A DNA stretch of 32,000 bases from an uncultured Erysipelotrichaceae bacterium (GTDB lineage Bacteria > Bacillota_I > Bacilli_A > Erysipelotrichales > Erysipelotrichaceae), in assembly GCA_942493105.1 (NCBI GenBank), contig OW818668.1:810001-842000 (forward strand). The letters run 5' to 3'. Positions 1 to 27,394 of the stretch are shown in pieces. Both the position numbers and the translations under genes were made by a program. How positions within the stretch are numbered: the first letter of the stretch is position 1; the number at the start of each line of letters is the position of its first letter. The notes below the pieces were generated by a model that saw only the letters and a list, made by a program, of their open reading frames with translations, did not search any database and was not told where the DNA came from.

Positions 1-108
1 CTCATCTCGATAAAAAGTCATCTAGGCTATTCTGCAAAGAATGGCTTTATATTCAATTAATAAAATGATGAATGTTTATAAATGAAATATGTTCTGTTTT
101 TATGATCT

Positions 109-681
109 TTAATAACGTTCAAGCAGCACTTCTTTAAAACGTTCCCCCGGATAAATATACTCTGTTTTCCCGCCAACCGTTTGTGTAACCAACCATCTGA
201 AGTTAACATCATGATTTATCTTTCTAGTTAACAGTATCCCATTCTCAATATAGTCAAAAAATGCATAGCCATCATTAGCAAAATCCATTTGATTTCGATT
301 TAATGAAGAAATGATGCTTCGATCAATAAGTTTGGAATAAGCGCAGAGTGAATACTGTGAAAAGAATTTCTCTAGTAAATGAACCATGCTTTTATCAGTT
401 TGGTACATATCCAATAAATAGAGTGCGATGGTATTGGCAATGCTTTCAAAGTCATCGACTTTGACATCGATAAGAAATATCGTGAGTTTGCTTGCAAAAT
501 TCATGGCTTGTATACATTTCCGACGATCAAAATAAAAAAGTTTTAATCCCCACTCAAGAAGGGCATCTCCTTGTTGATCTTTAATGATTTGTTTTGAAGC
601 TACTTGAGGGATGGTATGCATCTCATCAGGCATTTTGATTTTATATCGTTCGATGGTTTGTTTCGTTGCGTAAAGAATCAT
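109..681 (-). CDS. hypothetical protein (190 aa, soluble; no motif I can name)
   Basis: Uninterrupted 190-codon ORF. The ATG (rc of 679-681) is preceded by GGAGGAA (rc of 687-693). No TM segments or catalytic motifs recognised. Confidence 0.55.
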   Translation of the reverse strand: MILYATKQTIERYKIKMPDEMHTIPQVASKQIIKDQQGDALLEWGLKLFYFDRRKCIQAMNFASKLTIFLIDVKVDDFESIANTIALYLLDMYQTDKSMVHLLEKFFSQYSLCAYSKLIDRSIISSLNRNQMDFANDGYAFFDYIENGILLTRKINHDVNFRWLVTQTVGGKTEYIYPGERFKEVLLERY

Positions 682-3011: not shown

Positions 3012-3040
3012 TTGACATGGGAAGTATCTGATAGTAATAT
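3012..3040 (+). promoter_or_regulatory. sigma-A type promoter of the TetR-MMPL operon
   Basis: TTGACA (3012-3017), 17-nt spacer, TAATAT (3035-3040). The ORF-track start at 3012 is the TTG inside this -35 box. Confidence 0.6.
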
Positions 3041-3041
3041 A

Positions 3042-3055
3042 AGTAAGTACTTACT
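3042..3055. promoter_or_regulatory. perfect 14-bp palindrome, candidate TetR operator
   Basis: AGTAAGTACTTACT is its own reverse complement. It lies immediately downstream of the -10 box and upstream of the RBS of the TetR gene. Confidence 0.5.
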
Positions 3056-3074
3056 AACATTAAGAAAGGAAGAT

Positions 3075-3632
3075 ATGAAGGCAGAAACAACAAAACGACT
3101 GAGTCGAGATGATCGACGTGAGCAAATCATCCAAGCAGCTTTATTGGTTTTTGTTGAGAAAGGATTTGCGGCGACTACTACTGCTGAGATTGCAAAAGCA
3201 GCTGATATTTCAGAAGTGACATTGTTTAGAAATTTTTCATCAAAACGAGAAATATTCTATACGGGGATTGAGCCCATCTTATTCAAAGCATTACAGGATG
3301 ATTCCCCACAGGTGAAAAAGCATCTTGAGCCTTACCAAATAGAAAAAATTATCTTTGATAGAATAAGATTTTTAGAAGATAATCGAGGTATCGTTAAGCT
3401 CATTCTCAATGAAAATATGTTGAATCAAGAGGAAGATAACACCATTCATAAGATGGTTATTAACTTAAAAAAGCTTCTTGATAAGAACAAAATCAGTGGC
3501 AATGATGAATTTACGATTCGAATACTGATGGGTTCATTTCTGTCCTTTCTGTATCTGCCAGAATCAAACGAAGACCTTGTTAAAGAATATGCTCAACGCA
3601 TTTCAAGATTGATCATTCAGAGTCATCAATAA
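3075..3632 (+). CDS. TetR/AcrR family transcriptional regulator
   Basis: Start re-picked: ATG 3075 with RBS AAAGGAAG (3065-3072). N-terminal HTH RREQIIQAALLVFVEKGFAATTTAEIAKAADISEVTLFRNFSSKREIF. Confidence 0.9.
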   Translation: MKAETTKRLSRDDRREQIIQAALLVFVEKGFAATTTAEIAKAADISEVTLFRNFSSKREIFYTGIEPILFKALQDDSPQVKKHLEPYQIEKIIFDRIRFLEDNRGIVKLILNENMLNQEEDNTIHKMVINLKKLLDKNKISGNDEFTIRILMGSFLSFLYLPESNEDLVKEYAQRISRLIIQSHQ

Positions 3633-3641
3633 AGGAGAGAT

Positions 3642-6500
3642 ATGACGAAAATTTTCATTAGTATTGGTTCTCTAATTCAGAGAAAACCTTTTAAGTCGCT
3701 CTTGTTTACGCTTTTAATAGTAGCTGCATCCATTGCTGGGGCAACGCAAATGAAGTTGGCAACGGGTAATGATACTTTAGTCCAGTCTGATAACGAAGTC
3801 TTGATTTCAAACAAAACGATGGAGAATACCTTCGGCGGTGATGCGATATTGATTCTTTTAAACGCAGAAAATATCGAAAAGCTTTTATCTGTCGATAACA
3901 TTACCAAGCTTTATGCTATTGAAACAGAACTTTCTTTTGAAGATCATATTTTTTCCATCATAAGTCCAGCAACAATCGTTCATCAGATTACAACGAAACA
4001 ATCGATTGAAATTGTTAAACAATTGACATTGATTGCTAATGGACTAGGTGAAATGGGAGATAAGATGACAAGCTTAGGAAGTGAATTACTTCTTCTAGAC
4101 ATCAAAGACCCCAAAGAAATTTTAATTAAACTCAATGGTTTAAGTTCTATGACCAGTACTTTTGGTCAATTAATATCGGCTCAAGAATCAATGTCTACAG
4201 GAGCAGGACAGTTGGAAACAGGTCTATATGCCGTTGCGGATGGATTGTCGACTCTATCTATCCAACTTTCTAATTTAGCCGCCGGACAACCTGATGGAAG
4301 CCTAAAATTAACTTTAAGTGCCATGTCTGCTAACCTTGGTGTCACCTCTAATGGGGTTAGGACCATGGGGACAAATACTCAAAATGTTCAAACAGGAACA
4401 TCCAACACAGCACAAGCCTTGACTTTAATTAGTAAAAAATTAGCTTTAGAATTGTCTTCTATGAAAGATAGTTTAGATCAAGGTTTATCTCCAGATCAAC
4501 TTAAAATCATGGCTGAAAACTTTATCCTTATGGGGGATAAATTAAACACAATCTCGGATGGTCTTACTACATTCACAGTAAAGAGCACCATGATGGTTCC
4601 TTCGATTCCAACATTAGCCGATGAATTAACCACCATGATTTATGATGAAAACGATGTCATGAGAAGTGCTTTTACAGAAGTCATCATCAATGATCATCAA
4701 GCGATTATGGTAATTCGCTTAGCTGGAAATCTTAAAGATACTGAAAAAGACCGAATTACTTCAAACATAATAAGCATATTCGAAGATGCCAATTTTACTC
4801 AGTTGGACTATACACTTTCCGGTAAAAGTGTTTTGGATGCTGCATTAAGAGCTGAAATGAAGTCCAGTATGATGATGATGATTGCGTTGGCAGTACTTAT
4901 TATGTTTGGGGTACTCTTGCTTGTCTTTAAAGTGAAGTGGAGAATGTTAAGTTTAGCAGTTGTTTTTGTTTCAGTACTTACAACGCTAGGATTTATGGGT
5001 TGGATCAAAGTACCTGTCACCATGGTCTCTATGGCAGTATTTCCCATTCTTATTGGTCTGGGTATTGATTATTCAATCCAATTTCACAATCGATATGAGG
5101 AAGAGAAATCAGTTAAAGTCACAACAGAAAAGATTGGAAAAGCTGTGGCGATTGCGGTATTTGCGACAGTTCTAGGATTTATTTCACTATATGCTTCACC
5201 TGTTCCAATGATACAAGACTTTGGAAAGATGTTGACCATAGGGGTTATCATCAGCTTCTTAGGCAGCATCTTTCTATTGTTGCCAATATTACATATCGGA
5301 TCTCAAAATGAAGAAAGAAATGATTTTACTAAAAATGTTAAACTGGGAAGTACCAACGGTGGATTAATGGATCGGTTTCTTGCAAAAACGACACGACTAA
5401 TGATTAAACTAACTCTTCCGGTCATTTTATTGTTTGTTATCTTGGCAACAGCAGGATTTATGGTAGACCCATATATTGGTGTACAAACTGACATTGAAAG
5501 CTTTATGCCTCAAGATTTAAAAGCCCTCACTGATATCCATACGATTCGTGATGCAGTAGGGACCACCGATCAAATCGTAATCTACCTTAGTGATGATAAT
5601 GTATTGACTGAAGAAAATTTGACTTGGCTAAAGAATAAGTCACACATCATTTTGAATAAGTATGGTGAGATTGTTGTAAGCATCAAATCAATTGATTCAT
5701 TGATTTCATTGATTACTACAGACCAAGTTACGTCCTATGAAGTGGTTATTGGTTTGTTGAATGATCTACCAAGAAATCAACGCGCCATGTTTATCAGCGT
5801 TGATAATCAAGAAGCAGTCATGTTGGTAAACACAAAACATCTTACGACAGAAACTAATAAAGCATTGATTGCGAATATAAAGGATGAATTGTCAGATAGT
5901 CCATTCACATTCGAGGTCACGGGGAAAAGCGTACTGGATGTGGAGATGGTTGAAGGATTGACTTCAGGTAGAATCAACATGACTCTATTGGGTTTGGGCT
6001 TGGTTTTTGTGGCCTTGTTACTGATCTACAGAAATCTCTTCAAAGCTATTCTACCGATTATTCCGGTTACACTAATCATTGGGATATCAAGTGGCGTTAT
6101 GTATCTTACAGGCATAAAGTTTACTCCGATTACCGCTACACTTGGCGCTCTTGTTTTAGGTATGGGAACTGAAATGACAGTTATGTTGATGGAAAGATAC
6201 ATTGAAGAACGACACAATGGGTTACCAAAAGTTGAAGCGATGGTAGTTGCAGTAACCATGATTGGTAAAGCGATCGTAGCTTCTGGTTTAACCACTGTGG
6301 GTGGGTTTGCGGTATTGCTATTCTCTAACTTTATGATTTTGAAAGATTTTGGTTTCATGACTGTTTTTAATATCAGTTTGGCATTGGCAAGCACTTTTAT
6401 TATCCTACCCCCCATGATTGTTTTGGTTGATAAGTTCATTGTTAAGACGTCAAAAAAGCAAAAGGACAAACCACAAGGGTATCCTGTCGAATCTAAATAG
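3642..6500 (+). CDS. MMPL/RND-superfamily membrane transporter with an inserted LxxG heptad-repeat region
   Basis: 952 aa. Two 6-TM-like blocks each carry the duplicated signature GLGIDYSIQFHNRYEEE / GMGTEMTVMLMERYIEE. A segment of about 200 aa after TM1 is rich in L-x-x-G heptads (LGEMGDKMTSLGSEL, GQLETGLYAVADGLSTLSIQLSNLAAG). RBS AAAGGAGAG. Only 9 nt separate it from the TetR stop. Confidence 0.9.
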   Translation: MTKIFISIGSLIQRKPFKSLLFTLLIVAASIAGATQMKLATGNDTLVQSDNEVLISNKTMENTFGGDAILILLNAENIEKLLSVDNITKLYAIETELSFEDHIFSIISPATIVHQITTKQSIEIVKQLTLIANGLGEMGDKMTSLGSELLLLDIKDPKEILIKLNGLSSMTSTFGQLISAQESMSTGAGQLETGLYAVADGLSTLSIQLSNLAAGQPDGSLKLTLSAMSANLGVTSNGVRTMGTNTQNVQTGTSNTAQALTLISKKLALELSSMKDSLDQGLSPDQLKIMAENFILMGDKLNTISDGLTTFTVKSTMMVPSIPTLADELTTMIYDENDVMRSAFTEVIINDHQAIMVIRLAGNLKDTEKDRITSNIISIFEDANFTQLDYTLSGKSVLDAALRAEMKSSMMMMIALAVLIMFGVLLLVFKVKWRMLSLAVVFVSVLTTLGFMGWIKVPVTMVSMAVFPILIGLGIDYSIQFHNRYEEEKSVKVTTEKIGKAVAIAVFATVLGFISLYASPVPMIQDFGKMLTIGVIISFLGSIFLLLPILHIGSQNEERNDFTKNVKLGSTNGGLMDRFLAKTTRLMIKLTLPVILLFVILATAGFMVDPYIGVQTDIESFMPQDLKALTDIHTIRDAVGTTDQIVIYLSDDNVLTEENLTWLKNKSHIILNKYGEIVVSIKSIDSLISLITTDQVTSYEVVIGLLNDLPRNQRAMFISVDNQEAVMLVNTKHLTTETNKALIANIKDELSDSPFTFEVTGKSVLDVEMVEGLTSGRINMTLLGLGLVFVALLLIYRNLFKAILPIIPVTLIIGISSGVMYLTGIKFTPITATLGALVLGMGTEMTVMLMERYIEERHNGLPKVEAMVVAVTMIGKAIVASGLTTVGGFAVLLFSNFMILKDFGFMTVFNISLALASTFIILPPMIVLVDKFIVKTSKKQKDKPQGYPVESK

Positions 6501-6974
6501 AATTTGCTTATTTTTATCCAAAACAGATTCTCAAACATAAGAAAATACTTTATGCGTTTGCCTGGTTAATTGTCTTATTAGTGCTTGTGTTTAAAGAGCT
6601 TCCTATTTTTACCCCTCTGATTAAAGGATTTGTTGGGTTTGCCTTCATGTACGTTGTGATAATTATAGGAGCACTAGATCCAAAGTGGACACTAACCAAA
6701 CGACTCTGGAGTATAAGAACACCTTATTCGGTCATAGGATTTACGATTCACTTCGTACATCCTTTATCCTACGTAGCTGAAGTGATCAATCAAATTAAGG
6801 AGTTCATTGGTTTGAGATAGCTTCTTTTGTGGTCATGATTTCACTCTTTATTACCAGTTACATCTTTATCCGCAAGAAATGGCACATACAACATGGAAGA
6901 AACTCCATAAATGGGCATACCTTAATTGCCTGTTAATGATTATCCATTTGATTGTAAATGCTTCATCGATTTAA
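6497..6974 (+). pseudogene. disrupted polytopic membrane-protein gene (possibly ferric-reductase/MsrQ-like TM domain)
   Basis: Hydrophobic, coding-like translation is spread over three frames. Frame 2 (6497-6820): ..KKILYAFAWLIVLLVLVF..VIGFTIHFVHPLSYV..GLR*. Frame 1 (6799-6933): IASFVVMISLFITSYIFIRKKW... Frame 0 (6816-6974): ..TWKKLHKWAYLNCLLMIIHLIVNASSI*. There is no ATG at the head of the first segment. The family guess rests on the His-containing TM helices and a W-x-x-L-H-x-x-x-Y motif. Confidence 0.45.
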
Positions 6975-7041
6975 AACTAAATCGCAGTCATTCTTTTGGA
7001 GCTATTTATGTTGTGTTGAAATTTCTCAAAGAATTTAAATC

Positions 7042-7076
7042 AAAACCTCGCAAAGTCTAGAATAGCGAGGTTTTTT
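7042..7076. terminator. bidirectional rho-independent terminator between convergent genes
   Basis: AAAACCTCGC (7042-7051), 13-nt loop, GCGAGGTTTT (7065-7074). The A-run upstream and T-run downstream would serve both strands. Confidence 0.6.
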
Positions 7077-7111
7077 AAAACAATCAAATCAGATAGTTAT
7101 GCAAAAATCCT

Positions 7112-8560
7112 TTATAACGATGTTCCAGCATCCTTCACAAAGGCATCAATCAAAGCTTTGGGCCAATTCGTGATCGGTTTTAGTTTTCCAAAGAAGAATC
7201 TTAGGATCTCTGGTTCTTCTTCCCAAGTCAAACCTTTAACGAGTGTACGATGTTGAAACAACCAGATAACCCTATCAATGACGAAATCCAGCTGAGATAA
7301 AGTAAATACACGACGTGGTACAGCTAAACGTAACAGTTCCATGTGTGCTAAAGGCTCAGAACCATCCGGATTTCGCTGTTCACTTAGAGTGCCTCTTTCC
7401 ATCCCACGAATTCCACCCACAAGATACAAAGCGGCTGCTAAGGCGCCTGCAGGATATTCTTTTTGATCCAGATGACTTAGAAATGCTTTCGCATCCAAAT
7501 GACATCCTAAACCTCCAGCAGGTGTAACCACTGGAATCCCACTTTCCACAAACCTTTTCACCATGTGTTCAATGAATTGGGGACCTTGAGAGATGATGTC
7601 TTCATCCATGGTTTCTTCTAAGCCTACAGTTAAAGCTTCCATCTCACGGACACTCATTCCTCCATAAGTCAAGAAGCCTTCGTATAAAGGAATCAAGGTT
7701 CTCATCCTTTCATAGGCACCCTTATCTTTTAGAATGATCCCGCCTCCTTTAGAAAACCCTAATTTACGTGCTGAGAAATAGATGATATCCATGGATTGAG
7801 AAATCTTCGCTGTGATTTCGCGAATTGAAAGTTTCTGAGCTGATTTTTCACGAGTCTTTATAAAGAATAGATTGTCCTGTAAGAGTGAGGCATCCATCAC
7901 CGTCATAATTCCATGTTTCTGACAGACTTTAGAAACTGATAAGATATTCTCTAAAGACATCGGTTGTCCACCAATCAAATTGGTGCCTACTTCAAGTCTT
8001 ACAAAAGGAATCTTATCTTTACCAACGGATTTAATAAGTTTTTCAAGCTTTTCTGTATCCAAATTGCCTTTAAAAGGATGATCACTGGTTGTCTTTAAGC
8101 CTTCATCGATTACGATTTCTTCTACGGTTCCACCCATTCGTGTGATGTGGGCTTTAGCGGTCGTAAAGTGATAATTCATCGGAACCACACTGCCTTCCTT
8201 CACAAAGGTCATCGCTAAAATTGATTCAGCAGCTCTTCCTTGATGGACAGGTAAGAAAAAGGGCATCTTAAACAATTCTTTAAGTTTATTTTCCAGTCGA
8301 GTAAATGTCATGGATCCAGCATAGGAATCATCCGCAACCATCATCGCAGCCAACTGATTGTCACTCATCGCATTGACCCCAGAGTCTGTTAACATATCCA
8401 AGAAAACATCAGCGTTAGATAATAAGAAGGTGTTGAATCCAGCATTCTGGATCGCCTTTAATCGCTCCTTGGGCGAAATTAAAGTCAGTTTTTGGACAAT
8501 GCGAACTTTATGCATCTCCAAAGGTACAGCCGGTGTGCTTAAGAATTTGATGTTTGCCAT
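7112..8560 (-). CDS. tpl: tyrosine phenol-lyase-type beta-eliminating lyase (PLP-dependent; tryptophanase/TPL family)
   Basis: 482 aa, colinear with my recollection of Citrobacter TPL and E. coli TnaA (NTFLL..D.LTDSG.NAMSD, HQGR.AE, PRRV.T..H/QLD). PLP-lysine context is SARK (K266). The specificity positions are TPL-like: F132-T133 (TPL F123-T124; TnaA has Asp), MERG R389 (TPL R381; TnaA Ile), and LRFFF F455/F456 (TPL F448/F449; TnaA His-Phe). RBS AAGGAG. Confidence 0.85.
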   Translation of the reverse strand: MANIKFLSTPAVPLEMHKVRIVQKLTLISPKERLKAIQNAGFNTFLLSNADVFLDMLTDSGVNAMSDNQLAAMMVADDSYAGSMTFTRLENKLKELFKMPFFLPVHQGRAAESILAMTFVKEGSVVPMNYHFTTAKAHITRMGGTVEEIVIDEGLKTTSDHPFKGNLDTEKLEKLIKSVGKDKIPFVRLEVGTNLIGGQPMSLENILSVSKVCQKHGIMTVMDASLLQDNLFFIKTREKSAQKLSIREITAKISQSMDIIYFSARKLGFSKGGGIILKDKGAYERMRTLIPLYEGFLTYGGMSVREMEALTVGLEETMDEDIISQGPQFIEHMVKRFVESGIPVVTPAGGLGCHLDAKAFLSHLDQKEYPAGALAAALYLVGGIRGMERGTLSEQRNPDGSEPLAHMELLRLAVPRRVFTLSQLDFVIDRVIWLFQHRTLVKGLTWEEEPEILRFFFGKLKPITNWPKALIDAFVKDAGTSL

Positions 8561-8860
8561 AGTTTTCTCCTTGTGGTGGCTTGGCGCTCATCAAAAAAGG
8601 GCTCACCCTCTGATGTCAGAGGACGAGCGCCGTTCGTGTTACCACCTCAATTTACCGATCTCTCACAAAATCGGCCTTTTTAGGTACAGTTAAATCGATA
8701 CCCTATCTCTATAACGGGAGATCCCGACTTCACTTACTATCTTCAGCGAGCTGCTCAACAGGCGTATTCCGTTTGATCCAAACCGCTTCTTTTCACCGAC
8801 CAGAAGCTCTCTACAGATTTATCACAACGTACTCTTCCCATCTCAATGCATTTTTTATTG
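8561..8860 (-). promoter_or_regulatory. T-box riboswitch leader with a tyrosine (UAC) specifier
   Basis: Read on the minus strand. Stem I starts with a GA/K-turn context (TTGAGATGGGAAGAGTA ... CCTGTTGAGCA) and an AGAGA distal motif. The specifier loop is GAA-TAC-G (TAC is the rc of 8764-8766). The T-box sequence AAATTGAGGTGGTAACACG (rc of 8635-8653) carries a UGGU bulge. A terminator follows, and its 5' arm can alternatively pair with the T-box GAGG. Confidence 0.85.
8593..8628 (-). terminator. intrinsic terminator of the T-box leader
   Basis: On the minus strand, GCTCGTCCTCTG (8628-8617), ACAT, CAGAGGGTGAGC (8612-8601) form a 12-bp stem including two G-U pairs. This is followed by CC and TTTTTT (8598-8593). 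Confidence 0.8.
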
Positions 8861-8865
8861 GTTCA

Positions 8866-8895
8866 ATGATACATGCTGGATAAGTAGCTTGTCAA
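8866..8895 (-). promoter_or_regulatory. sigma-A type promoter of the T-box/tpl transcript
   Basis: On the minus strand: TTGACA (8895-8890), 18-nt spacer, TATCAT (8871-8866). Confidence 0.6.
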
Positions 8896-9521
8896 GATAA
8901 AATATGATTAAATTATCCTTTACTAAAAACTAACTGATTCAGGTAATTCTTGAATTAAAAACATTTTTATAGAAATTCACCTTGTTTATGGATTTCTCTT
9001 GAATGTTTATGAAATCAGCATCATTCAGTTTCAGTAAATATATAATTACTCGTGGTTAGGTAAAACAAAGGTTTAGTAGTAGATGATTAACTCAAGTATT
9101 AGTTCCAAAAGAACAATTTAGATGGTGAGTAACACATAGTAAAAGCATTCATAACCACTTAGATTAACGATAACTAAACTTCTTAATTTCACCAAAAAGA
9201 AGTTAGTGGTGCTTTCAACATATTATGAATAATATGAAAATAGTTAGCAGGCAATTTGGTTTAAATAATCCTCACGGAGAATGGCGCAACTCATAAAAAA
9301 TAGTAACCAATGTTGTGTAAATATAAAGAAACTAAAAAAATTAATTCCTAAAGAGTAATCTTTTTAGATTTGCACAAAGTTTGCTATAAATAGCAGATAA
9401 CCCACCTTTATAGCGCTTATTTCTACCATTATTTATAAATTTAGTTTAAGATGTATTTAAATAAAACTTAGAAGTTGATTTAGTAATTAAATTGGATTTA
9501 CTAAAGGGGAAAGGTAGAAAT

Positions 9522-11660
9522 ATGAAAATTTTATACATAGGGGAATGCGATAGTTTTTCGGCACAGTTTATTGATCGCCACGTTAAAGAAGGTAATTCTG
9601 TAAGCATCATTTCGAGACAGGATTTCTCCAAGTTTAACAAACCAAAACTACAGTACAGCTGGTATGATTATTCGGCTGACAATGTTACTGTTGATCGTAT
9701 CTTCAGCAACATCAAACCTCAACAAGTTGTGTTCGCTGGAAGCTTATTTGGCGATGAAGAGTGGTCTTACGATGCAGACTCTAACCGGTATCTAAGTGAA
9801 CTCTTAAATATTCTAAACTTGTCTAAAAAATATGCTGTTGATAAGTTTATTTTCCTGTCTTCAACAGAGGTCTATAAAGCATATAAGGATGGACCGATCG
9901 GTGAAGAAGGTGATTATGGTCCTTCGACTTATAAAGGCATCCTGACCACTCAAGGCGAGATCCTAGTCAAAGAAGTTGGTGCTTTATCTACTCTGAATAC
10001 GCTTATTCTGCGCTTCAGTGATCTCTATGGATATAAACTTGAAGAGGAAAGAAATGACTTCTTGAGCAGTCTATACCATCAGCTGCAAAAACTGGACGAA
10101 CTTCATCTCAATAAAGACCATAACCTGAGTCCTTTACACATCAATGATGCGGTAGAAGCAGTATACCGCTGTGAAGGCAATACACCTTCTAAGATCTATA
10201 ATGTGGCTGGTAATCGCCAAGTCAATGCTTTGGCTGTGGCTGTTACACTCAAACAGAAGCTCAATAAGGCAAGCTCATTGGTCGCTGTGCAAGGCAATGC
10301 CCATAATAATGAGATCGACTCCAAATTGATCAAGACTGAACAGGAGTGGGGAGAGTTTTATTCCTTTGATGAATTCTTGGCTAACCTGACGATCACTTCA
10401 CCAGTTTCCAATGAAACTGTTCTCGAGAAACCTAAAAAAGAAAAATCAAATCCGGTCGTGCTCCATCTTATCGAGAATGTCGTGTTCTTTGTGTTGATGG
10501 CAACTTTGACAACGTTGTTTAAAGATCACAGTGTCCTAAAGAACGTTGATCTTATGACCATCTATATTGTATCTATTGCTTTATTCTTTGGGATACGGCA
10601 ATCCATCTTATCGATCATTTTAACCTTTGCTTTCTACCTGTATGGACTGCAATTTGATTTCGGTAACTTCATCAACATCGTACTTAATGCGGATACCTTC
10701 CTAAAATTGGCACAGTATATCTTTATGGGGGTCGTAGTTGGTTATACTGTGGATCAGTTTAAAACCAACCAGGCTCAATTGACTATTGAAAAAGAATATC
10801 TTGAGAACGAATACGAAGAGCTAAAAGAAATCAACGACGCCAATGTCATGATCAAACATCAATATGAAAAGCGTTTGATCAGTTACAAGACCAGTTTACC
10901 TCGTTTGTATGCGATCACCAATCAGCTGGATTCTTTGGATCCTGAGATCCTTTTCTCTTCGATCATCAAAGTTTTGGTGGATGTTTTGGAAACCGATTCC
11001 GTATCGGTCTACTCCTATGACAGCCGTAATGGTTATGCTCGTCTGATCGGTGCTAAAAATGAAGAGTCTGTATTCATGGGCAAATCCTTTAAGCTTTCCG
11101 ATCACAAGGAATTGGAACACAAACTATTTGATAATGACATCTTCATTGGCAATCAGTGGGCAGATGGATCACCAGCCATGGCTGGTCCAATCTTCTTCAA
11201 AGGCAACATCATTGCCATCATTCTGATCAAGTCCATGACTTTTGAATCATTAAACCTATACCAAGTTAACCTCTTGAGAACACTGACTTCTTTGATTTCC
11301 TCTTCCTTCATTCGTGCCTATCAGTATGAAGAGAAGGTCCACAACGAAAAGTATTTGACCAACACAGAAGTCCTGGTCACCTCAGAATTCAAACGATTGA
11401 TTGAGTTAAAGCGCAATGACAGTGATCAGGCTTTTGCAGACTACACATTATTGAGATTGATCCATACGGAAGATCCAACGACCTACTACTTTAAAATCAT
11501 GAATTATTTCAGATCGACCGATTATTTCGGAATCGACAGCCAAAACCGCATTCATGTCTTGTTGAGAAATACCGCAGCTCAAGATGTAGCGTTTGTGGCC
11601 GCTCGTTTGAAAGACAAAGAGATTCATTTTGAACTCGTAGATATGAATTCGTTGAAGTAA
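9522..11660 (+). CDS. pelD: PelD-like c-di-GMP receptor candidate with an N-terminal degenerate SDR/epimerase-like domain
   Basis: Start re-picked to ATG 9522 (MKILYIG) after AAAGGGGAAAGG. Residues 1 to about 290 are SDR-like (LSSTEVY, YKG..). The GxxGxxG is degraded to GECDSFS, and YxxxK to YKGIL. About four TM helices follow (VVLHLIENVVFFVLMATL ... YIFMGVVVGYTV), then a coiled coil and a GAF-like region. The C-terminus is a truncated GGDEF-like fold with RSTD (11511-11522) in the I-site position and no GGDEF motif. It is the first gene of a pelDEAFG-ordered operon. Confidence 0.7.
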   Translation: MKILYIGECDSFSAQFIDRHVKEGNSVSIISRQDFSKFNKPKLQYSWYDYSADNVTVDRIFSNIKPQQVVFAGSLFGDEEWSYDADSNRYLSELLNILNLSKKYAVDKFIFLSSTEVYKAYKDGPIGEEGDYGPSTYKGILTTQGEILVKEVGALSTLNTLILRFSDLYGYKLEEERNDFLSSLYHQLQKLDELHLNKDHNLSPLHINDAVEAVYRCEGNTPSKIYNVAGNRQVNALAVAVTLKQKLNKASSLVAVQGNAHNNEIDSKLIKTEQEWGEFYSFDEFLANLTITSPVSNETVLEKPKKEKSNPVVLHLIENVVFFVLMATLTTLFKDHSVLKNVDLMTIYIVSIALFFGIRQSILSIILTFAFYLYGLQFDFGNFINIVLNADTFLKLAQYIFMGVVVGYTVDQFKTNQAQLTIEKEYLENEYEELKEINDANVMIKHQYEKRLISYKTSLPRLYAITNQLDSLDPEILFSSIIKVLVDVLETDSVSVYSYDSRNGYARLIGAKNEESVFMGKSFKLSDHKELEHKLFDNDIFIGNQWADGSPAMAGPIFFKGNIIAIILIKSMTFESLNLYQVNLLRTLTSLISSSFIRAYQYEEKVHNEKYLTNTEVLVTSEFKRLIELKRNDSDQAFADYTLLRLIHTEDPTTYYFKIMNYFRSTDYFGIDSQNRIHVLLRNTAAQDVAFVAARLKDKEIHFELVDMNSLK

Positions 11661-11674
11661 AGGAGGACGAAACC

Positions 11675-12559
11675 ATGCCAGTATGGATTCTATTGATATT
11701 AAATACCCTGTGTTCAGTCCTGTTTTTCTTTACTGTGAAAGACAAACAAGAACGTATCTTCACTTTGTTCTTTCTGATCTTGCCGATATTTGGATTCATT
11801 TTCTATTTCATTCCGAAACTATCTTTCCAATTGACCAAGAAACACAACTTATATGATGCCTCCAATGTAAAACTTAAGATCAGTGAAGAAACTTTCTCGC
11901 AAAAACCAAATGTCCCTGAAGAAATGAACATCGTCTCATTCGATGAGATCATGCAGGTAGGACTCAAAGAAGAAAAAAGAGCCTTACTTTTAAACGTTTT
12001 GAAAGATGATTTGGTTGATAATGCATCGTTTATCCGTTCGGCGATGGGAGACTCTGATTCTGAAACTACCCACTATGCAGCTTCCGCAACCATGCAGATT
12101 TATACCAAACTCAGATCTGCAATTCAAGCCTTGGAAACACAACAGCAGCTTGATCCTGAGAATCCGAAAGTGATGCTCAATTTACTATCTGCAATCAGTG
12201 ATTACATTTTAAGTGGTGTCCTTACCAAAAGGGACAGTGATTTCTACTGTAACAAATACTTCAGAGCATTCAATACTCTAAAGAAATTTGAACCAGGTTT
12301 GCTGACTTGTGATGCGTATTTGAAACAAGCTGATTTTCTGTATTCAAATTTCGAGGTTCACAAAAGCATTGAAACAGCCATCGAAGCCAGAAACCATTTT
12401 GATGTAGAAGAAGCCCATCTCAAACTTTTGGAACTGTACTATAAGACGGGCAATCAACATCAATTCAATGAAGCGTTTGAAACTTTCAAACGTTCTAATC
12501 TGACTGTATCCAACAAGGGACTAGAACTGATTCGGTTTTGGAGCAAGAGGACTGCTTAA
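11675..12559 (+). CDS. pelE: PelE-like inner-membrane protein (two TM helices plus a helical-repeat domain)
   Basis: RBS AAGGAGGA. Two N-terminal TM helices (VWILLILNTLCSVLFFFTV; IFTLFFLILPIFGFIFYFIP), then about 220 aa of helical/TPL-unrelated TPR-like sequence. The assignment rests on architecture and its slot between pelD and pelA. Confidence 0.6.
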   Translation: MPVWILLILNTLCSVLFFFTVKDKQERIFTLFFLILPIFGFIFYFIPKLSFQLTKKHNLYDASNVKLKISEETFSQKPNVPEEMNIVSFDEIMQVGLKEEKRALLLNVLKDDLVDNASFIRSAMGDSDSETTHYAASATMQIYTKLRSAIQALETQQQLDPENPKVMLNLLSAISDYILSGVLTKRDSDFYCNKYFRAFNTLKKFEPGLLTCDAYLKQADFLYSNFEVHKSIETAIEARNHFDVEEAHLKLLELYYKTGNQHQFNEAFETFKRSNLTVSNKGLELIRFWSKRTA

Positions 12560-14277
12560 TGTTTTCTCGTAAACGCTTAGCTTACATCTTAACGATCACC
12601 ATTATTTTTGGCGGACTCTTTTTTTTATTCAACTTGGACTATGATTTTCTAAGATCACAGTCGATCAATGAAGCCGATAAGATTGTCCCTTCTCAAAAGG
12701 TAAGTGCGATACTTAATGGTGATGCTGATGATGGTTTCATCGTCATTGGAGAACCACTTAACGAAACTGAGGAGTTGATCAAAACCAACGTGATCAAAGC
12801 TTTGACGCAGATCAAAAGCGAGATCACAATCGTAACTCATCTCTCACAAGCGGATCTCAGTAAGCATTCGATCTTGATTTTTGTTGTTTCGGATGTTAGC
12901 CAAGCAGGCGGTCTTGAAGAAATTGCAGGTTATGTGACCAAAGGAGGCAAAGCCATATTTGCTGCTGGTATCCCTTTCGAAACAGATTGGCGTTATCTGG
13001 ATCCTTTGTGGGGTATCCTTGAACGTGGTACTTTCAGGACAGTCAAAGACATCACCTTTAACCAAGACTATTTCCCTTACGATAAAATCACAGTCAAAGA
13101 TGGGTATCCGACTTATTCTACAAGCTTAAGATTAAGCGAAACTTGTGAAGTATTGCTTCAAGGCGAAAATGACATCCCCTTAGTGTGGTCTCATTCGTTT
13201 GAATCTGGGAGGATCACCATGATCAATGGAACCTTTATGGAAAGTAAACTCTCCTTAGGGGTCTTGATTGCATCCATCAACAGTACCAAACAAACTTCAC
13301 TTTACCCGATCTTGGCAACGAAAACCATCTTTCTGGATGCGATTCCACCTTTATTTGACGGTAATGATGATCATTCATTTGAGTATTATGGAAGAAGCGC
13401 AGAATCTTTTGTAAGAGACAAGTTATGGGGAGTTCTGCTTCAAAAGGCCAGCATCTTGGATCTGAGATTGACATCGAGTTTTATGGCCATTGATAAGCAA
13501 CCTTTTGATAGCCAAAATGCCAATCAACAAACATTTTCCTACATCAATCGGGAAATCATCCGCAATAAAGGCGAGATCACTTTATCTGGTAATCATGTTG
13601 AATTGAATGATTTGAAGCAAACGCGTATTGAACAAACCGAATCCTTCTTCAGTGAATTCTTCCCAAATTACAATATTCATGCATATTATCCTTTGTACGG
13701 TAAGATCAATCAGCAGCAAATCAATTTAATAAAAACAGTTTATCCTGCCATCGACATTCTTCGCTTGCTTTATGATAGCGATCAGATTACCCAATCCAGC
13801 GGTGATTATCAGGTCACTGATGGACTTGTGATCTATCCAACCACGACTTACGGGTATAAAGCTGAAGGATTACAACTGTATACGTTTATTTCCGTACTGA
13901 CATCGCATGGAGCGGTTTCACACAGCTTTGATATCAACTCTTTGTTTACTGTACCATCGAGTGAAAGTAACTGGAATACTCTGAATAAAAGCTTCGACAC
14001 CTTAAGCGAGATTTATTTCCAAAAAACACCCTGGTTGGATTCATTGACGATTTCACCAGCGGCTGAAAAAGTGAAGGACTTAGATACTCTAAGCATCCAA
14101 ACCAAAACCGAAGCTAATCAAATCACTGTGGCTTGTACAGACATGGCTGTTGGACAGAAATTCATGTTTTATACCACCAAAACGATCCTCAGTGCCATCG
14201 GCGCTAAAGTAGAACGAATCAATTCTCGATATTATATCATTGAAGCATCATCCGCATCGTTTGTATTAATGTATTGA
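12559..14277 (+). CDS. pelA: PelA-like protein, deacetylase-only type (PelA_DA candidate), extracytoplasmic
   Basis: Start re-picked: TAATG stop/start overlap with pelE (12557-12561), with RBS AAGAGGA (12545-12551). Signal anchor LAYILTITIIFGGLFFLF, then about 540 aa outside. The call rests mainly on synteny with Gram-positive pelDEA(DA)FG. I could not verify a CE4-type metal triad by eye. Confidence 0.55.
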   Translation: MFSRKRLAYILTITIIFGGLFFLFNLDYDFLRSQSINEADKIVPSQKVSAILNGDADDGFIVIGEPLNETEELIKTNVIKALTQIKSEITIVTHLSQADLSKHSILIFVVSDVSQAGGLEEIAGYVTKGGKAIFAAGIPFETDWRYLDPLWGILERGTFRTVKDITFNQDYFPYDKITVKDGYPTYSTSLRLSETCEVLLQGENDIPLVWSHSFESGRITMINGTFMESKLSLGVLIASINSTKQTSLYPILATKTIFLDAIPPLFDGNDDHSFEYYGRSAESFVRDKLWGVLLQKASILDLRLTSSFMAIDKQPFDSQNANQQTFSYINREIIRNKGEITLSGNHVELNDLKQTRIEQTESFFSEFFPNYNIHAYYPLYGKINQQQINLIKTVYPAIDILRLLYDSDQITQSSGDYQVTDGLVIYPTTTYGYKAEGLQLYTFISVLTSHGAVSHSFDINSLFTVPSSESNWNTLNKSFDTLSEIYFQKTPWLDSLTISPAAEKVKDLDTLSIQTKTEANQITVACTDMAVGQKFMFYTTKTILSAIGAKVERINSRYYIIEASSASFVLMY

Positions 14278-14310
14278 GCTGAATAAACCAAAGGAAGAAG
14301 GGGGCTAATT

Positions 14311-15759
14311 ATGAAAGTATGTATCATCTCTGAAGGAAGTTATCCATATGTTGCTGGTGGTGTATCCAGCTGGGTACAAATGCTTCTGGACCATTTCAGT
14401 GACATCGAATTTGTAATCTGGTCGATCGCAACCAGTCGTGAAGAAATGAGCGAGATGAAATACACCTTGCCTGCAAACGTCAAGGAAGTTAGAACCATCT
14501 ATCTTAATGATGTCAAATTCAAGACGATCCATTCCAATATCAAATTATCAAAAGATGAGCACGAAGCCTTAAAATCATTGATTATGGAGAATGATCATGA
14601 AGACATCCAATGGAAACCAATCTTAGATCTCATCAAGAATCATAAAGGCAACCTGATCGATGTACTGATGAGTCATGATTTCTTTGATATCGCTGTTGAT
14701 CTGTATAACACGGATTTCTCTAGAACTGTATTCAATGATTTCCTGTGGAATCTAAGATCGATGTTTTATCCTTTACTGTCAACCTTGGTCGATGAATTTC
14801 CCCAAGCAGACATCTATCATTCAGCCTCTACTGGTTATGCTGGTCTTTTGGGCAGTATTGCCAGTTATATCAATAAGAAACCTTTGATCATCACTGAACA
14901 TGGAATCTATACCCGTGAACGTGAGGAAGAAATCATCAAATCCGATTGGGTCATTGGTGATTTCAAACGGAATTGGATCAACTTCTTCTATCGGATATCT
15001 TCAATCTGTTATCATCAAGCTACCAAAGTCGTTTCCTTATTTGAAACCAACCGTGCTTTACAGATTGAAATGGGTTGTCCTGATGATAAAACGATGATCA
15101 TTCCTAATGGGGTAGACGTCAAACACTATTCTTCCCATCTTTATGATATCGATCAAAAAGCAGATATGAAAGTCTTGAGAACCAATTCAAATAAGATACG
15201 GATTGGTGCTACTGTCCGTATGGTTCCCATCAAAGACATCAAGACCATGATCCTAGCTTTTGAAGCTGCATTACAGCGTGTTAGTAATCTTGAACTGGTA
15301 ATTTTAGGCCCTACTGAAGAAGATGTTGAATATCATCAAGAAGTTATGTCTCTGATCGATGATTTTAAACTAAAGAATGTATCGATCATGGGTCGTGTCA
15401 ACGTCAAGAACTACTTGCCTACGTTTGACATCATGTTGCTGACCAGCATCAGTGAAGGACAACCTTTGGCTGTACTGGAAGGCATGGCAGCAGGTATACC
15501 GCAGATTTGTACCAATGTCGGTGGTTGCAAGGAGTTGTTGTATGGAATGAGCGATGACGAACTTGGACACTGTGGAATCATTGTACCTGTCATGGATATC
15601 GAAAAGATTGCCTCAGCTATCGAAGTGTTGGCACTTGACGAAACCCTAAGAGCTCAAATGGGTAAGATTGGTCATGAACGTGTTAAGGCAACCTATCAGA
15701 AAAAAGACTTCCTGGATCATTATGAAGCCTTATATAAATCGACTTTAGGTCAGCAGTAA
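14311..15759 (+). CDS. pelF: PelF, GT4-family glycosyltransferase
   Basis: The N-terminus MKVCIISEGSYPYVAGGVSSWVQMLL matches the PelF signature (EG.YPYV.GGVSSWV). The C-terminal GT-B motif is SISEGQPLAVLEGMAAGIP. RBS GGAAGAAGGGGG. Confidence 0.9.
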   Translation: MKVCIISEGSYPYVAGGVSSWVQMLLDHFSDIEFVIWSIATSREEMSEMKYTLPANVKEVRTIYLNDVKFKTIHSNIKLSKDEHEALKSLIMENDHEDIQWKPILDLIKNHKGNLIDVLMSHDFFDIAVDLYNTDFSRTVFNDFLWNLRSMFYPLLSTLVDEFPQADIYHSASTGYAGLLGSIASYINKKPLIITEHGIYTREREEEIIKSDWVIGDFKRNWINFFYRISSICYHQATKVVSLFETNRALQIEMGCPDDKTMIIPNGVDVKHYSSHLYDIDQKADMKVLRTNSNKIRIGATVRMVPIKDIKTMILAFEAALQRVSNLELVILGPTEEDVEYHQEVMSLIDDFKLKNVSIMGRVNVKNYLPTFDIMLLTSISEGQPLAVLEGMAAGIPQICTNVGGCKELLYGMSDDELGHCGIIVPVMDIEKIASAIEVLALDETLRAQMGKIGHERVKATYQKKDFLDHYEALYKSTLGQQ

Positions 15760-15772
15760 AAGGAGAAACTCT

Positions 15773-17161
15773 ATGGCAGGCATCGGATTTGAACTTAGAA
15801 AAATATTTCGCGGCACTTCGATCAGCAGTAGATTAAAGGGGATTGCCTTTGCGACCATGACAACGATAGGACCTACAATCATCTTCCTAACCATGCTGAT
15901 CAGCATTAATTTAATGTTGACTGCATTGAATGTCAGTGAAGCAGATCAAGTCTTCTTCTCTAGTGCTACCTTGTATCTCTTTCTGTTCAGTATCATCATA
16001 ACTGGAACGACCGGAACGACGATCACCAGATATATCTCTGATAGGATCCATGAGAATGAAGAAGACTATATCCCTTCAGCAATGTTTGGAACATCGATCC
16101 TAATCAGCGGACTGACAGCACTCTTCGCAACGATCATCGTAGTCTTGTTGTATAAGGATGGCATTACCGATTTGGTTTTGCTTGCTTCATTGTATGTTTT
16201 GTCTATCGTGGTCAGTATCACCTATAACTTGATGTTTTTTATCTCAGCCTTGAAAGAATATTTAAAGATCACAGCCGCTTTCTTCTTTGGTTTTTTATCC
16301 GGCGCTCTGACTTTCTATTTGCTCTATCAGTTTACTCAGATCAATATATTGATTTCAATCTTGATGGGTATGATTGTCCTGTTTTCAATCATCAATCTGC
16401 TACTGATTTATCTGATCCTGACATACTTTAATCATTCCAATCGAGATTATTTTAGATTCCTAACTTATTTCAAAAAACACCCTTATCTTTTTCTCAGTGG
16501 TTTTTTCTATATCACAAGCTTATATATCCCAAATATCCTATATTGGATGTATTCAGATATCGCGATCCAGGTTTCAATTTTCAGGGTGGCTCCATCGTAT
16601 GATATGGCACTCTTCTTAGCGATTCTGGTCAATTTATCAACTCCGGTCATATTTGTTGTCAAAGTCGAAACTAAATTCTTTGAAAAGTATCAGAAATATG
16701 TTGGAAGTTTGATCAACGGGACCTATGGTATCATAGAGAAGTATCGTAAGATCATGTTAAAAACCATGGATATCGAACTCTTCTATATTTATGAAGTTCA
16801 ACTGATCATCACCATAATTCTGACCTGTGCCGGCATTTTGCTTCTTCCAATGTTGGGTTTTGGTGGGATGATCCTGAACTATTTCCTCTTGTTGTCGATT
16901 GGCGTATACTGTACATATCTAATGTATTTCACAGTAGTATTCCTGTATTATTTTGATGATCAGTTTGGTAGTTTTATCACGACGCTGACCTTCTTCGTCA
17001 CCACTGTATTTGCCAGTATTGCTGCACTTCAGTTGGGTGTCTCTTATTATCCTGTAGCCCTATTTATTGGTGGGATTGTTTCCTGGGTTGTCGGCTTCTT
17101 TAGACTGAGGACCTTCATGGGAACCATCAACGCAAGACTGTATTGTAAAAGTGCAGAGTAA
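15773..17161 (+). CDS. pelG: PelG, polytopic exopolysaccharide export/polymerisation membrane protein
   Basis: The N-terminus MAGIGFELRKIF is the characteristic PelG start. About 12 TM helices. RBS AAAGGAGAA. Starts 13 nt after the pelF stop. Confidence 0.9.
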   Translation: MAGIGFELRKIFRGTSISSRLKGIAFATMTTIGPTIIFLTMLISINLMLTALNVSEADQVFFSSATLYLFLFSIIITGTTGTTITRYISDRIHENEEDYIPSAMFGTSILISGLTALFATIIVVLLYKDGITDLVLLASLYVLSIVVSITYNLMFFISALKEYLKITAAFFFGFLSGALTFYLLYQFTQINILISILMGMIVLFSIINLLLIYLILTYFNHSNRDYFRFLTYFKKHPYLFLSGFFYITSLYIPNILYWMYSDIAIQVSIFRVAPSYDMALFLAILVNLSTPVIFVVKVETKFFEKYQKYVGSLINGTYGIIEKYRKIMLKTMDIELFYIYEVQLIITIILTCAGILLLPMLGFGGMILNYFLLLSIGVYCTYLMYFTVVFLYYFDDQFGSFITTLTFFVTTVFASIAALQLGVSYYPVALFIGGIVSWVVGFFRLRTFMGTINARLYCKSAE

Positions 17162-17170
17162 AGGAAACTC

Positions 17171-18907
17171 ATGAAGCGTTTTAATTGGAAGAATAGAAAT
17201 TTTCTAGTTGTACTGTCATTTATCCTAGGGATCGGTGTTTTTACTAGTTTTTATTTGAGTTCACTCAATAAAGTTGAAGAACTGCCAGAAGACAATACCA
17301 GCTTGGAAGATTGGACTTTAGAGAACAGCCCACTTAACGGACTGCCTTTGATTGAAAACAAGACAATCTATAAAGTCGATCAGGCTGATGATTTGGATTC
17401 GATTTACATTACTGTTTTTCCAACAGAGACGGATGAAGGACTCATCGATTTTTCAATTTTCGACTTGCATGAATCTTTGAATCAAGACTTCAATCCGACC
17501 TTGAATGCCAACGTTACGATCGGTGATAGCAGTGGTAAGCTATCTGTCTTCGTGGACACCAACTCAATCAATGCCTACATCAAAGTCAGAGGCAATTCCT
17601 CAAGAGGTGCGGCTTTTAAATCCTACAAGATCAAGTTCACTACTGAAAATGACAGCTATAAAGGATTCACTGTTCTAAATCTCAATAAGCACGTGTATGA
17701 TCCCAGCAAAGTTGCAAACAAATTTTCCTTTGATATGATGAGTCAGTTAGATAATATGGCTTCACTGAGAACAAACTTTGTCAAAGTCTACATCAAAGAT
17801 GCCTCTTTACCGACCAATAAGCGTAAATATGTTTATTATGGACTTTACACCAACATAGAACAACCCAATCGGGATTTCTTAACGTCACACGGCTTAGATG
17901 CCAATGGCTCACTATATAAGGCGACCAGTTTTGAATTTCACGAGTATGAAGCTTTGAAGAATGTGGATGATCCTGGCTATAATCAAGCTGCTTTCGAAAA
18001 GATCCTTGAGATCCGCGAAGGCAATAATCATACAAAACTATTGAAGATGCTAAAAGACATCAATGATATGGAGTTGGATTTTGACACGACCTTCAAGAAG
18101 TATTTCAATGAGGAGAATTATCTGACATGGCTGGCAATGAACATCCTGCTGGGCAATGAAGATGTCTTGTCTCAAAATTTCTTCTTATATAATCCTACCA
18201 ATTCATTGACTTGGTATCTGTTACCATGGGATTATGACGGAACCTTTAAATTCGGGATTGCGGAATCTGGACATAAAGCACCGGATTCGATGCAAGGTAT
18301 TCAGCGTCTTACCGCCATACTTTTGCATCGTCGTTACTTTTTAAAGGCGGAGAATATCGATAAACTGACAAAAAAACTGGATGATTTACTCGCTACGACT
18401 TTCTCAAAAACCAACGTCAATAAAACGGTAGACCAATATCTTCCAGTCATGCAGGCAACCTTAGGGAAGCTTCCTGATGTTAGACTTCTAGGAATGGAAC
18501 CCAATCAGCTTAAGACATATATCCATGGCTTCTATGACGAAATCAAATCTAACTACGATGATTACTTAAGTGCATTGAAATACCCGACTCCTGTCTTTAC
18601 AGCGACGCCTATCAAAAACACAGACGGAACAACAACATTTATCTGGGAAAATTCTACCGATTTCGATGGGGATCTTATCAAATACTCGATTCGATTGGCA
18701 AAAGATCCTGGGATGAAACAAATCATCTTCAGTCAACAAAACTTGGTCGTTACGAATTACACCTATACCGGGACTTTAAAAGGAACCTATTACTTGGAAG
18801 TCAAAAGCATCGACAGTAAAGGAAATAACCAATATAGTTTAGACACCTTTGAGAATCTGATCACCCAGATTCATTACTTTGGGATCAGACAACTTATCTT
18901 TGAGTAG
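17171..18907 (+). CDS. CotH-family atypical kinase-like protein, membrane-anchored and extracytoplasmic
   Basis: Starts 9 nt after the pelG stop. N-terminal signal anchor (NFLVVLSFILGIGVFTSFYL). CotH-type core (LNLNKHVYDPSKV..F.., NFFLYNP, LLPWDYDGTF, with W-D-Y-D at 18227-18238). The C-terminal region of about 100 aa is a beta-rich FN3-like domain. Confidence 0.8.
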   Translation: MKRFNWKNRNFLVVLSFILGIGVFTSFYLSSLNKVEELPEDNTSLEDWTLENSPLNGLPLIENKTIYKVDQADDLDSIYITVFPTETDEGLIDFSIFDLHESLNQDFNPTLNANVTIGDSSGKLSVFVDTNSINAYIKVRGNSSRGAAFKSYKIKFTTENDSYKGFTVLNLNKHVYDPSKVANKFSFDMMSQLDNMASLRTNFVKVYIKDASLPTNKRKYVYYGLYTNIEQPNRDFLTSHGLDANGSLYKATSFEFHEYEALKNVDDPGYNQAAFEKILEIREGNNHTKLLKMLKDINDMELDFDTTFKKYFNEENYLTWLAMNILLGNEDVLSQNFFLYNPTNSLTWYLLPWDYDGTFKFGIAESGHKAPDSMQGIQRLTAILLHRRYFLKAENIDKLTKKLDDLLATTFSKTNVNKTVDQYLPVMQATLGKLPDVRLLGMEPNQLKTYIHGFYDEIKSNYDDYLSALKYPTPVFTATPIKNTDGTTTFIWENSTDFDGDLIKYSIRLAKDPGMKQIIFSQQNLVVTNYTYTGTLKGTYYLEVKSIDSKGNNQYSLDTFENLITQIHYFGIRQLIFE

Positions 18908-18911
18908 CACC

Positions 18912-27315: not shown

Positions 27316-27394
27316 AATGTTCTCCATTACTGTTGGTAATTCAACATAAATAAGGAAAGTGTAAAGTAGGCACCATTTTTTCATTATCTGTCGA

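Follow-up and report, generated by a model that had tools for sequence, protein, structure and literature searches.

A tyrosine-specifier T-box leader ahead of a lyase related to tyrosine phenol-lyase in an uncultured Erysipelotrichaceae bacterium and at loci of other species

We consider here a T-box leader and the lyase gene that follows it in a stretch of 32,000 nt of DNA from an uncultured Erysipelotrichaceae bacterium (assembly GCA_942493105.1, contig OW818668.1, positions 810,001 to 842,000). This whole stretch is called the window below, and coordinates are counted from its first letter. On its minus strand the window carries a predicted canonical transcription-attenuating T-box riboswitch with a Tyr (UAC) specifier, and directly behind it a gene for a pyridoxal phosphate (PLP)-dependent beta-eliminating lyase of the tryptophanase/tyrosine phenol-lyase (TPL) family. 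Beyond the window we saw the same arrangement, a full-length T-box with UAC specifier ahead of an ortholog of the lyase, at a total of 26 loci. Given the regulatory logic of such leaders and the conserved linkage, we think it fairly probable that the lyase makes tyrosine from scavenged phenol in these organisms.

The leader RNA and its conservation

The covariance model RF00230 matched positions 8855 to 8616 of the minus strand over its full length (model positions 1–219 of 219) with 118.7 bits against a gathering threshold of 93 (E = 5.8e-26); it was the sole Rfam match across the 32-kb window. A preliminary description of this DNA, made from the letters alone, had proposed such a scan, and the elements it had read by eye came back in the RF00230 alignment: Stem I with the GA/K-turn and AGAGA, the specifier in the context GAA-UAC-G, with UAC set by the model in the specifier position, and the T-box sequence, AAAUUGAGGUGGUAACACG at 8653–8635, with UGGU within it at 8644–8641. 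The T-box core GGUGGUAACACG begins at 8646. The UGGU bulge fits the A73 discriminator of bacterial tRNA-Tyr. Specifier frames AAU, AUA and ACG were rejected, since UAC is the reading given by the covariance model and also by the convention of GAA, codon, purine; the base after UAC is A, G or C among the leaders, so the downstream frames are not conserved.

The stem-loop of the attenuator, GCUCGUCCUCUG-ACAU-CAGAGGGUGAGC, spans 8628–8601 and is followed by CC and then by U6 at 8598–8593. Of the terminator claimed earlier, the 12-bp stem and the U6 run were found as described; the run does not directly follow the stem, as the CC spacer lies between them. The 5′ arm of the terminator (8628–8617) overlaps the 3′ strand of the antiterminator at 8627–8619, so that the two structures compete with each other, which is the hallmark of a transcriptional T-box. 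The attenuator was the only terminator-like site in the region 6400–9500. The promoter sits where it had been read before (TTGACA, 18-nt spacer, TATCAT), has 11 of 12 consensus matches and is the top one of nine promoter-like sites in the same region. The mean number of such sites in shuffled sequences was 9.2, i.e. there is no enrichment, so the promoter call is carried only by position and match quality. An antisense open reading frame (8358–8693, plus strand, 111 aa, TTG start) that overlaps the T-box terminator and the beginning of the lyase gene was rejected as almost certainly spurious. Coordinates of all features are collected in Table 1.

Table 1. Features of the leader, the lyase gene and the neighbouring operon in the window
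Feature	Position	Strand	Details
Sigma-70-type promoter	8866..8895	−	−35 TTGACA 8895–8890, 18-nt spacer, −10 TATCAT 8871–8866
T-box leader core, Rfam RF00230	8616..8855	−	Full-length covariance-model match
Stem I	8753..8849	−	GA/K-turn at base, AG bulge AGAGA 8812–8808, distal loop GGUCGGUGAAA 8801–8791; RF00230 alignment
Specifier codon UAC (Tyr)	8764..8766	−	Context GAA-UAC-G; RF00230 model specifier position
Stem III hairpin	8654..8675	−	Directly 5′ of the T-box sequence; RF00230 alignment
Antiterminator	8619..8648	−	Helix A1 GAGG/CCUC, 7-nt bulge UGGUAAC, helix A2 ACGA/UCGU; RF00230 structure line
Intrinsic terminator (attenuator)	8593..8628	−	12-bp stem, 4-nt loop, CC, U6; minimum free energy and centroid folds
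Ribosome-binding site GGAG	8567..8570	−	6 nt ahead of the lyase ATG (8560)
482-aa PLP-dependent beta-eliminating lyase gene	7112..8560	−	Third (TPL-like) subfamily of the tryptophanase/TPL family
Terminator 3′ of the lyase gene	7037..7074	−	10-bp stem AAAACCUCGC/GCGAGGUUUU, 13-nt loop, U-rich tail
PelF-type GT4 glycosyltransferase	14311–15759	+	
CotH kinase-like protein	17171–18907	+	
VTC-domain protein	18879–19625	+	
DUF4956 protein	19618–20289	+	
DUF4874/DUF4832 protein	20240–21661	+	

With this anatomy, transcription would start at the promoter (8895–8866), and the tRNA-Tyr anticodon would read the UAC codon in Stem I. An uncharged tRNA would pair with the UGGU bulge through its free A73-C-C-A end, the antiterminator (8648–8619) would be stabilized and the polymerase would enter the gene; with a charged tRNA, the 12-bp terminator (8628–8601, then U6) would form and transcription would end. 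A tRNA gene was searched for in the window and none was found.

We compared the neighbourhoods of the gene at 80 ortholog loci, with ∼4–10 kb around each gene. In a motif screen, 23 of the 80 loci had the T-box core motif 100–140 nt 5′ of the ortholog, and no comparable match was seen elsewhere in the same loci. All 23 were full-length RF00230 matches (80–137 bits, E of 1e-15 or better); the gathering threshold was reached by 15, and several of the remaining eight have an extra hairpin in Stem I. A T-box-linked lyase was also found in a 90%-identical metagenomic relative and in two cultured species, Caloramator quimbayensis (GCA_900167605.1; 125 bits) and Miniphocaeibacter massiliensis (GCA_900232905.1; 119 bits). 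The leaders of these three have the GAA-UAC-N specifier as well; UGG was never seen.

For 24 homologous leaders, that of the window and those of the 23 genome loci, an alignment with mean column identity of 61% was built. All 24 have GAAUAC, AGAGA and the motif GG..GGUG without variation; compensatory changes were observed at 22 of the 35 predicted pairs, the distal Stem I pairs covary, and the Stem III pairs (columns 252–274) show 1–9 compensatory changes each. The invariant GAAUAC and the covarying pairs, taken together with the RF00230 match, bear out the earlier claim of a transcriptional T-box with Tyr specifier. Since leader and UAC are kept with compensatory changes at this level of identity, and in one case in another phylum, we conclude that they are under selection and not a relic. 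The leader from the other phylum belongs to a Chloroflexi metagenome-assembled genome (MAG) of Leptolinea (locus L043) and has the canonical core GGUGGUACCGCG.

Five leaders (L005, L007, L009, L027 and L042) contain an extra GC-rich hairpin (e.g. GGGCAATCGCCCC) within Stem I, at alignment columns 41–56; they score 81–91 bits, under the RF00230 gathering threshold, yet all conserved motifs are kept.

Grundy and Henkin are said to have described, in 1993, the founding Tyr-specific T-box, the leader of Bacillus subtilis tyrS. The leader of the window is like it in the RF00230 match, the UAC specifier, the UGGU bulge facing A73, the competition of terminator and antiterminator and the transcriptional mode of control. 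It differs from tyrS in its target, which is a TPL-like PLP lyase here and tyrosyl-tRNA synthetase there, and also in the core: unlike tyrS and the consensus GGUGGUACCGCG, the window, 22 of the 23 genome loci and three further leaders read GGUGGUAACACG (AACACG).

In the protein tree, the T-box-linked lyases are mostly in one Clostridial subtree. Copies from Spirochaetes (L001, L002, L019) and Muribaculaceae (L004) are nested in this subtree without the core motif, which fits a horizontal transfer that took the gene and not the leader. In the Spirochaetes, the copies sit 3′ of a conserved 88-aa open reading frame. Actinobacteria, Coriobacteriia and Synergistaceae loci had no T-box at RF00230 gathering. 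Three loci (L017, L024 and L040) have <850 nt of upstream sequence, so the absence of a T-box there carries little weight.

A subfamily beside TPL and tryptophanase

The lyase matches Pfam Beta_elim_lyase with 162 bits; its best solved relatives are TPLs (350–373 bits), with tryptophanases at ∼280–310 bits, and the fold should not be in doubt given 39% identity with solved TPLs. Identities computed from a MAFFT alignment were 39.1% to Citrobacter freundii TPL and 36.6% to the Escherichia coli tryptophanase TnaA, with 43.3% between these two enzymes themselves, and a neighbour-joining tree with TnaA as root has the lyase clade as sister to TPL. The TPL equivalog of NCBIfam, TIGR02618, gave 427.5 bits, under its cutoff of 720.7; the tryptophanase equivalogs TIGR02617 and NF053783 also failed (350.3 versus 825.8 and 396.9 versus 750). 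The only NCBIfam model passed was NF009709, ‘tryptophanase’ (584.5 versus 285), which is a broad subfamily model and no equivalog. Judged by these scores and the tree, the lyase belongs to a distinct third subfamily of the tryptophanase/TPL family, and it is no strict TPL.

The clade comprises at least 120 protein clusters at 65–100% identity, with lengths of 481–499 aa among the matches listed. Named homologs among these matches are mostly annotated as tryptophanase, and the nearest named ones are from Clostridia. Relatives in 482 GTDB species genomes belong to Clostridia, Bacteroidales, Spirochaetes, Actinobacteria, Synergistaceae and Chloroflexi.

Active-site residues were tabulated for the window protein and its 80 orthologs (81 clade members) and for E. 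coli TnaA, using C. freundii TPL numbering; this numbering was rebuilt from the alignment and verified by finding the residues known from the literature at the expected places. The catalytic set Tyr71, Arg100, Phe123, Asn185, Asp214, Lys257 and Arg404 is invariant in the clade (81/81), and all 81 members likewise have the TPL-type pocket, Thr124, Met379, Arg381, Phe448 and Phe449. Equivalents of pocket and catalytic residues in the window protein are Lys266 (the PLP lysine), Tyr80, Thr133, Met387, Arg389, Phe455 and Phe456. At the discriminating sites E. coli TnaA has Asp137, Val394, Ile396 and His463; of these, the indole-pocket residues Asp137, Ile396 and His463 are replaced by Thr, Arg and Phe in every clade member. 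The clade-invariant residues shared only with TPL occupy 20 positions and those shared only with TnaA occupy six. Thr124, Arg381 and Phe448, whose roles in TPL specificity were reportedly studied by Sundararaju in 1997 and Demidkina in 2002, are presumably needed for activity on tyrosine; Arg381 and Thr124 we take to bind the para-hydroxyl.

At 19 positions where TPL and TnaA agree, the clade has an invariant substitution of its own; R217L, K256R, E69D, M253F, H343L and F346H are among them, and the window protein has Leu226, Arg265, Asp78, Leu351, His354 and Phe262 at the substituted sites. Arg217, Lys256, His343 and Glu69 have become Leu, Arg, Leu and Asp in 80–81 of the 81 members. Arg217 presumably contacts O3′ of PLP, and His343 has reportedly been studied by mutagenesis. 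The His seems to be shifted by one helical turn in the clade (H343L together with F346H). In sum of residues, the side-chain pocket appears to point to tyrosine or phenol, and the cofactor-side environment is unlike that of any characterized family member.

The preliminary description had named the gene a tyrosine phenol-lyase. The name agrees with the TPL-type pocket; it goes too far in view of the failed TPL equivalog, the 39% identity and the invariant changes peculiar to the clade. That the enzyme could be a tryptophanase with no activity on tyrosine or phenol had been given there as the outcome that would speak against the claim; the pocket, when checked, was of TPL type and not of tryptophanase type. 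One could still suppose that the database label is right, i.e. that the lyase is a tryptophanase and the leader is misread or regulates tryptophan/indole metabolism, as the pass of NF009709 and the annotation of most named homologs among the matches listed would suggest. We regard this as very improbable: NF009709 is too broad a model to carry the label, both TnaA equivalogs failed (350 versus 826 and 397 versus 750), the TnaA indole-pocket residues have given way to TPL ones in 81 of 81 sequences, and the specifier is UAC in every leader and UGG in none.

The lyase is like the TPLs of C. freundii and Erwinia herbicola (EC 4.1.99.2; PDB 2ez1 and 1c7g) in fold, length class and catalytic and pocket residues; it is unlike them in its identity (39% to C. 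freundii), the sub-equivalog score and the changes R217L, K256R, H343L, F346H and E69D, and its 482 aa, against 456 aa of canonical TPL, include N- and C-terminal extensions. With E. coli TnaA it shares superfamily and PLP chemistry at 36.6% identity. It differs from TnaA in having a TPL-type pocket and in being preceded by a T-box, in contrast to the TnaC leader peptide, the tnaC-tnaA-tnaB arrangement and the catabolite control of the E. coli gene.

Direction of the reaction and its meaning

A gene behind this leader would be on when tRNA-Tyr is uncharged, and under such control an enzyme destroying tyrosine would be self-defeating; hence the lyase should supply tyrosine. The TPL reaction is reversible, includes a beta-replacement between serine and phenol as well, and is used in industry for synthesis of L-Tyr and L-DOPA. 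The lyase would run toward tyrosine, either as phenol + pyruvate + NH4+ → L-Tyr or as phenol + L-serine → L-Tyr + H2O, and environmental phenol would be salvaged in a single step, much as TrpB salvages indole. In the surveys examined, T-boxes control only aminoacyl-tRNA synthetases, genes of biosynthesis and transporters (PMC2494555; PMC3766115). All of these increase the amount of charged cognate tRNA, thus the lyase is most likely tyrosine-forming, and recurrence of the Tyr T-box at 26 further loci strengthens this reading. The preliminary description had already proposed that the enzyme works in reverse, and of the readings of the regulatory logic we regard this one as the most economical.

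An ordinary catabolic TPL, cleaving tyrosine into phenol, pyruvate and ammonia, with the T-box as an evolutionary hand-me-down or serving some other purpose, seems unlikely. It is true that the nearest solved relatives are catabolic TPLs and that the many orthologs without a T-box may be catabolic where they occur. However, inducing the destruction of tyrosine at the moment when tRNA-Tyr is uncharged would defeat itself, the leader and its UAC are maintained by selection across diverged leaders, one of them in another phylum, and the canonical catabolic tpl follows the opposite logic: it is induced by tyrosine via TyrR, as is generally known, and the lyase here appears to be wired for induction by the lack of charged tRNA-Tyr.

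Another reading keeps the T-box as described and has the lyase remove a tyrosine antimetabolite (meta-tyrosine, halogenated or nitrated tyrosine, DOPA) that blocks TyrRS, so that cleavage would restore charging. A T-box senses charging and not tyrosine, so an inhibitor of charging would induce the gene too; the TPL-type pocket is conserved, TPL is generally known to accept many ring-substituted tyrosines, and the active-site changes specific for the clade leave room for a shifted substrate range. On the other hand, detoxifying enzymes are absent from the T-box targets in the surveys examined, Arg381 and Thr124, which we take to be the residues that bind the para-hydroxyl, are invariant and favour tyrosine itself, and an environmental antimetabolite, to which nothing here points, would have to be assumed in addition. 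We hold this reading to be quite unlikely.

Returning to the synthesis of tyrosine from phenol, several points weigh against it. About 15 other Bacillota orthologs had no T-box at RF00230 gathering, and Bacteroidales and Spirochaete loci had no core motif near the gene in the motif screen, the one search (no Rfam scan) applied to these loci. A tie to tyrosine starvation thus does not hold throughout the clade, and elsewhere its members may be catabolic. The score against the TPL equivalog TIGR02618 is below cutoff, and with R217L, K256R, H343L/F346H and E69D the chemistry may differ from that of TPL. Habitats given in the records are anaerobic digesters, animal guts and a hot spring; they plausibly offer phenol and ammonia, the source of phenol being an assumption. 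In the literature we found no record of activity or expression for any member of the clade.

One could speculate further that the whole clade of 481–482-aa proteins is a physiological ‘tyrosine synthase’: an enzyme derived from TPL, tuned by R217L, K256R and H343L/F346H, which joins phenol to pyruvate and ammonia or to serine, frees anaerobes from the shikimate/prephenate route and in many Clostridia stands under a Tyr T-box. We put this forward tentatively, as a possibility to which we give a little less than an even chance.

The closest precedent for the logic proposed here is in the Bacillus cereus group, where Tyr T-boxes are located 5′ of phenylalanine-4-hydroxylase and of a tyrosine biosynthesis operon (Wels et al. 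2008, PMC2494555). As with the hydroxylase, a Tyr T-box would control an enzyme that needs a single step to turn an existing aromatic compound into tyrosine. The enzyme family and the precursor are different (a proposed formation of a C–C bond on phenol versus hydroxylation of phenylalanine), and so are the taxa: anaerobic Clostridia and one Chloroflexi here, aerobic Bacillales there.

Stand-alone TrpB and TrpB2 salvage indole, e.g. in Chlamydia and many Firmicutes. The concept would be the same: the shikimate pathway is bypassed, and a PLP enzyme makes the aromatic amino acid by linking a scavenged ring to a backbone of three carbons; unlike in the proposed case, TrpB and TrpB2 belong to an unrelated fold type and make another amino acid.

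We found no paper linking a T-box with TPL, tryptophanase or tnaA; Vitreschak et al. 2008 was outside the coverage of this search and could mention one. The surveys of Wels 2008 and Sun 2013, including their supplements, list no TPL or tryptophanase target. No physiological salvage of phenol to tyrosine, no characterization of the lyase clade and no phenotype reports for the C. quimbayensis or M. massiliensis isolates were found in the literature either. As an RNA, the leader is one more Tyr T-box; as a T-box target, the lyase is new to the literature searched, and of the two it is the enzyme clade that holds more interest.

In effect, the specifier codon is a functional tag that names the amino acid served by the gene behind it. 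The amino acid named here is tyrosine, in a very large clade that public databases mostly call tryptophanase. Together, the Tyr specifier and the TPL-type pocket correct the likely substrate of the clade, and control in this direction, with the gene switched on by uncharged tRNA-Tyr, suggests that the enzyme is anabolic, a role not yet reported for natural members of its family. Were this true, the metabolism of anaerobes would gain a one-step route of salvage from phenol to tyrosine. Phenol is a precursor of the uraemic toxin phenyl sulfate. Genes of the clade would, on the same condition, consume phenol and not produce it, and where gut phenol and phenyl sulfate are predicted from gene content they would have to be read the opposite way. 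In one study the abundance of TPL genes did not track phenyl-sulfate production (PMC13230720). With the same arrangement present in two cultured species, the hypothesis is directly testable.

Surroundings of the lyase gene

The earlier claim that the T-box precedes and controls a lyase agrees with the position of the beta-eliminating lyase gene, immediately 3′ of the leader. The hairpin at 7074–7037, behind the gene, has a folding energy of −14.5 kcal/mol (z = −3.94), and none of 200 shuffled sequences folded as well. Flanking genes are unrelated to the lyase: an ECF sigma factor, a TetR regulator with an MMPL transporter, and a Pel-like polysaccharide operon on the other strand. With a terminator of its own and unrelated neighbours, the leader and the lyase thus make up a stand-alone monocistronic unit.

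No conserved partner of the lyase (transporter, aro/tyr genes or phenol-forming decarboxylase) was found nearby in the 80 loci, nor was any other gene conserved beside it. The neighbours that recur (a MeaB-like GTPase, an ABC ATPase and a MetY-like enzyme, all identified by eye) reflect synteny within single lineages. In 13 Bacteroidales loci (Alistipes/Rikenellaceae, e.g. L047, L051–L054 and L059) the ortholog lies ∼120–180 nt 3′ of a gene for a MeaB/ArgK-type GTPase-like protein on the same strand, with a glyoxalase-like (methylmalonyl-CoA epimerase-like) gene also nearby; both were recognized by eye.

In a T-box-less Bacillota subclade (L018, L020, L021 and L029) the ortholog is 500–1100 nt from a divergent gene for a ∼720-aa protein, by eye a PAS-domain histidine kinase. 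The long intergenic regions at these four loci had no Rfam match, and the subclade may have a different mode of regulation. At L040, from an uncultured Clostridiales MAG, an RF00029 group II intron domain (positions 107–172, plus strand, 44.9 bits) is situated ∼80 nt 5′ of the ortholog.

In the window itself, which has a GC content of 36.9%, pairs of TetR and MMPL/RND-type transporter genes occur twice in 32 kb, at 3012–6500 (plus strand) and at 26722–27384 (minus strand)/27471–29549 (plus strand); one of the two pairs comes directly after the lyase gene and is encoded on the other strand. The long same-strand operon at 9492–21661 (plus strand) has the look of a fusion between a Pel-like exopolysaccharide locus and a CotH-VTC-DUF4956 module.

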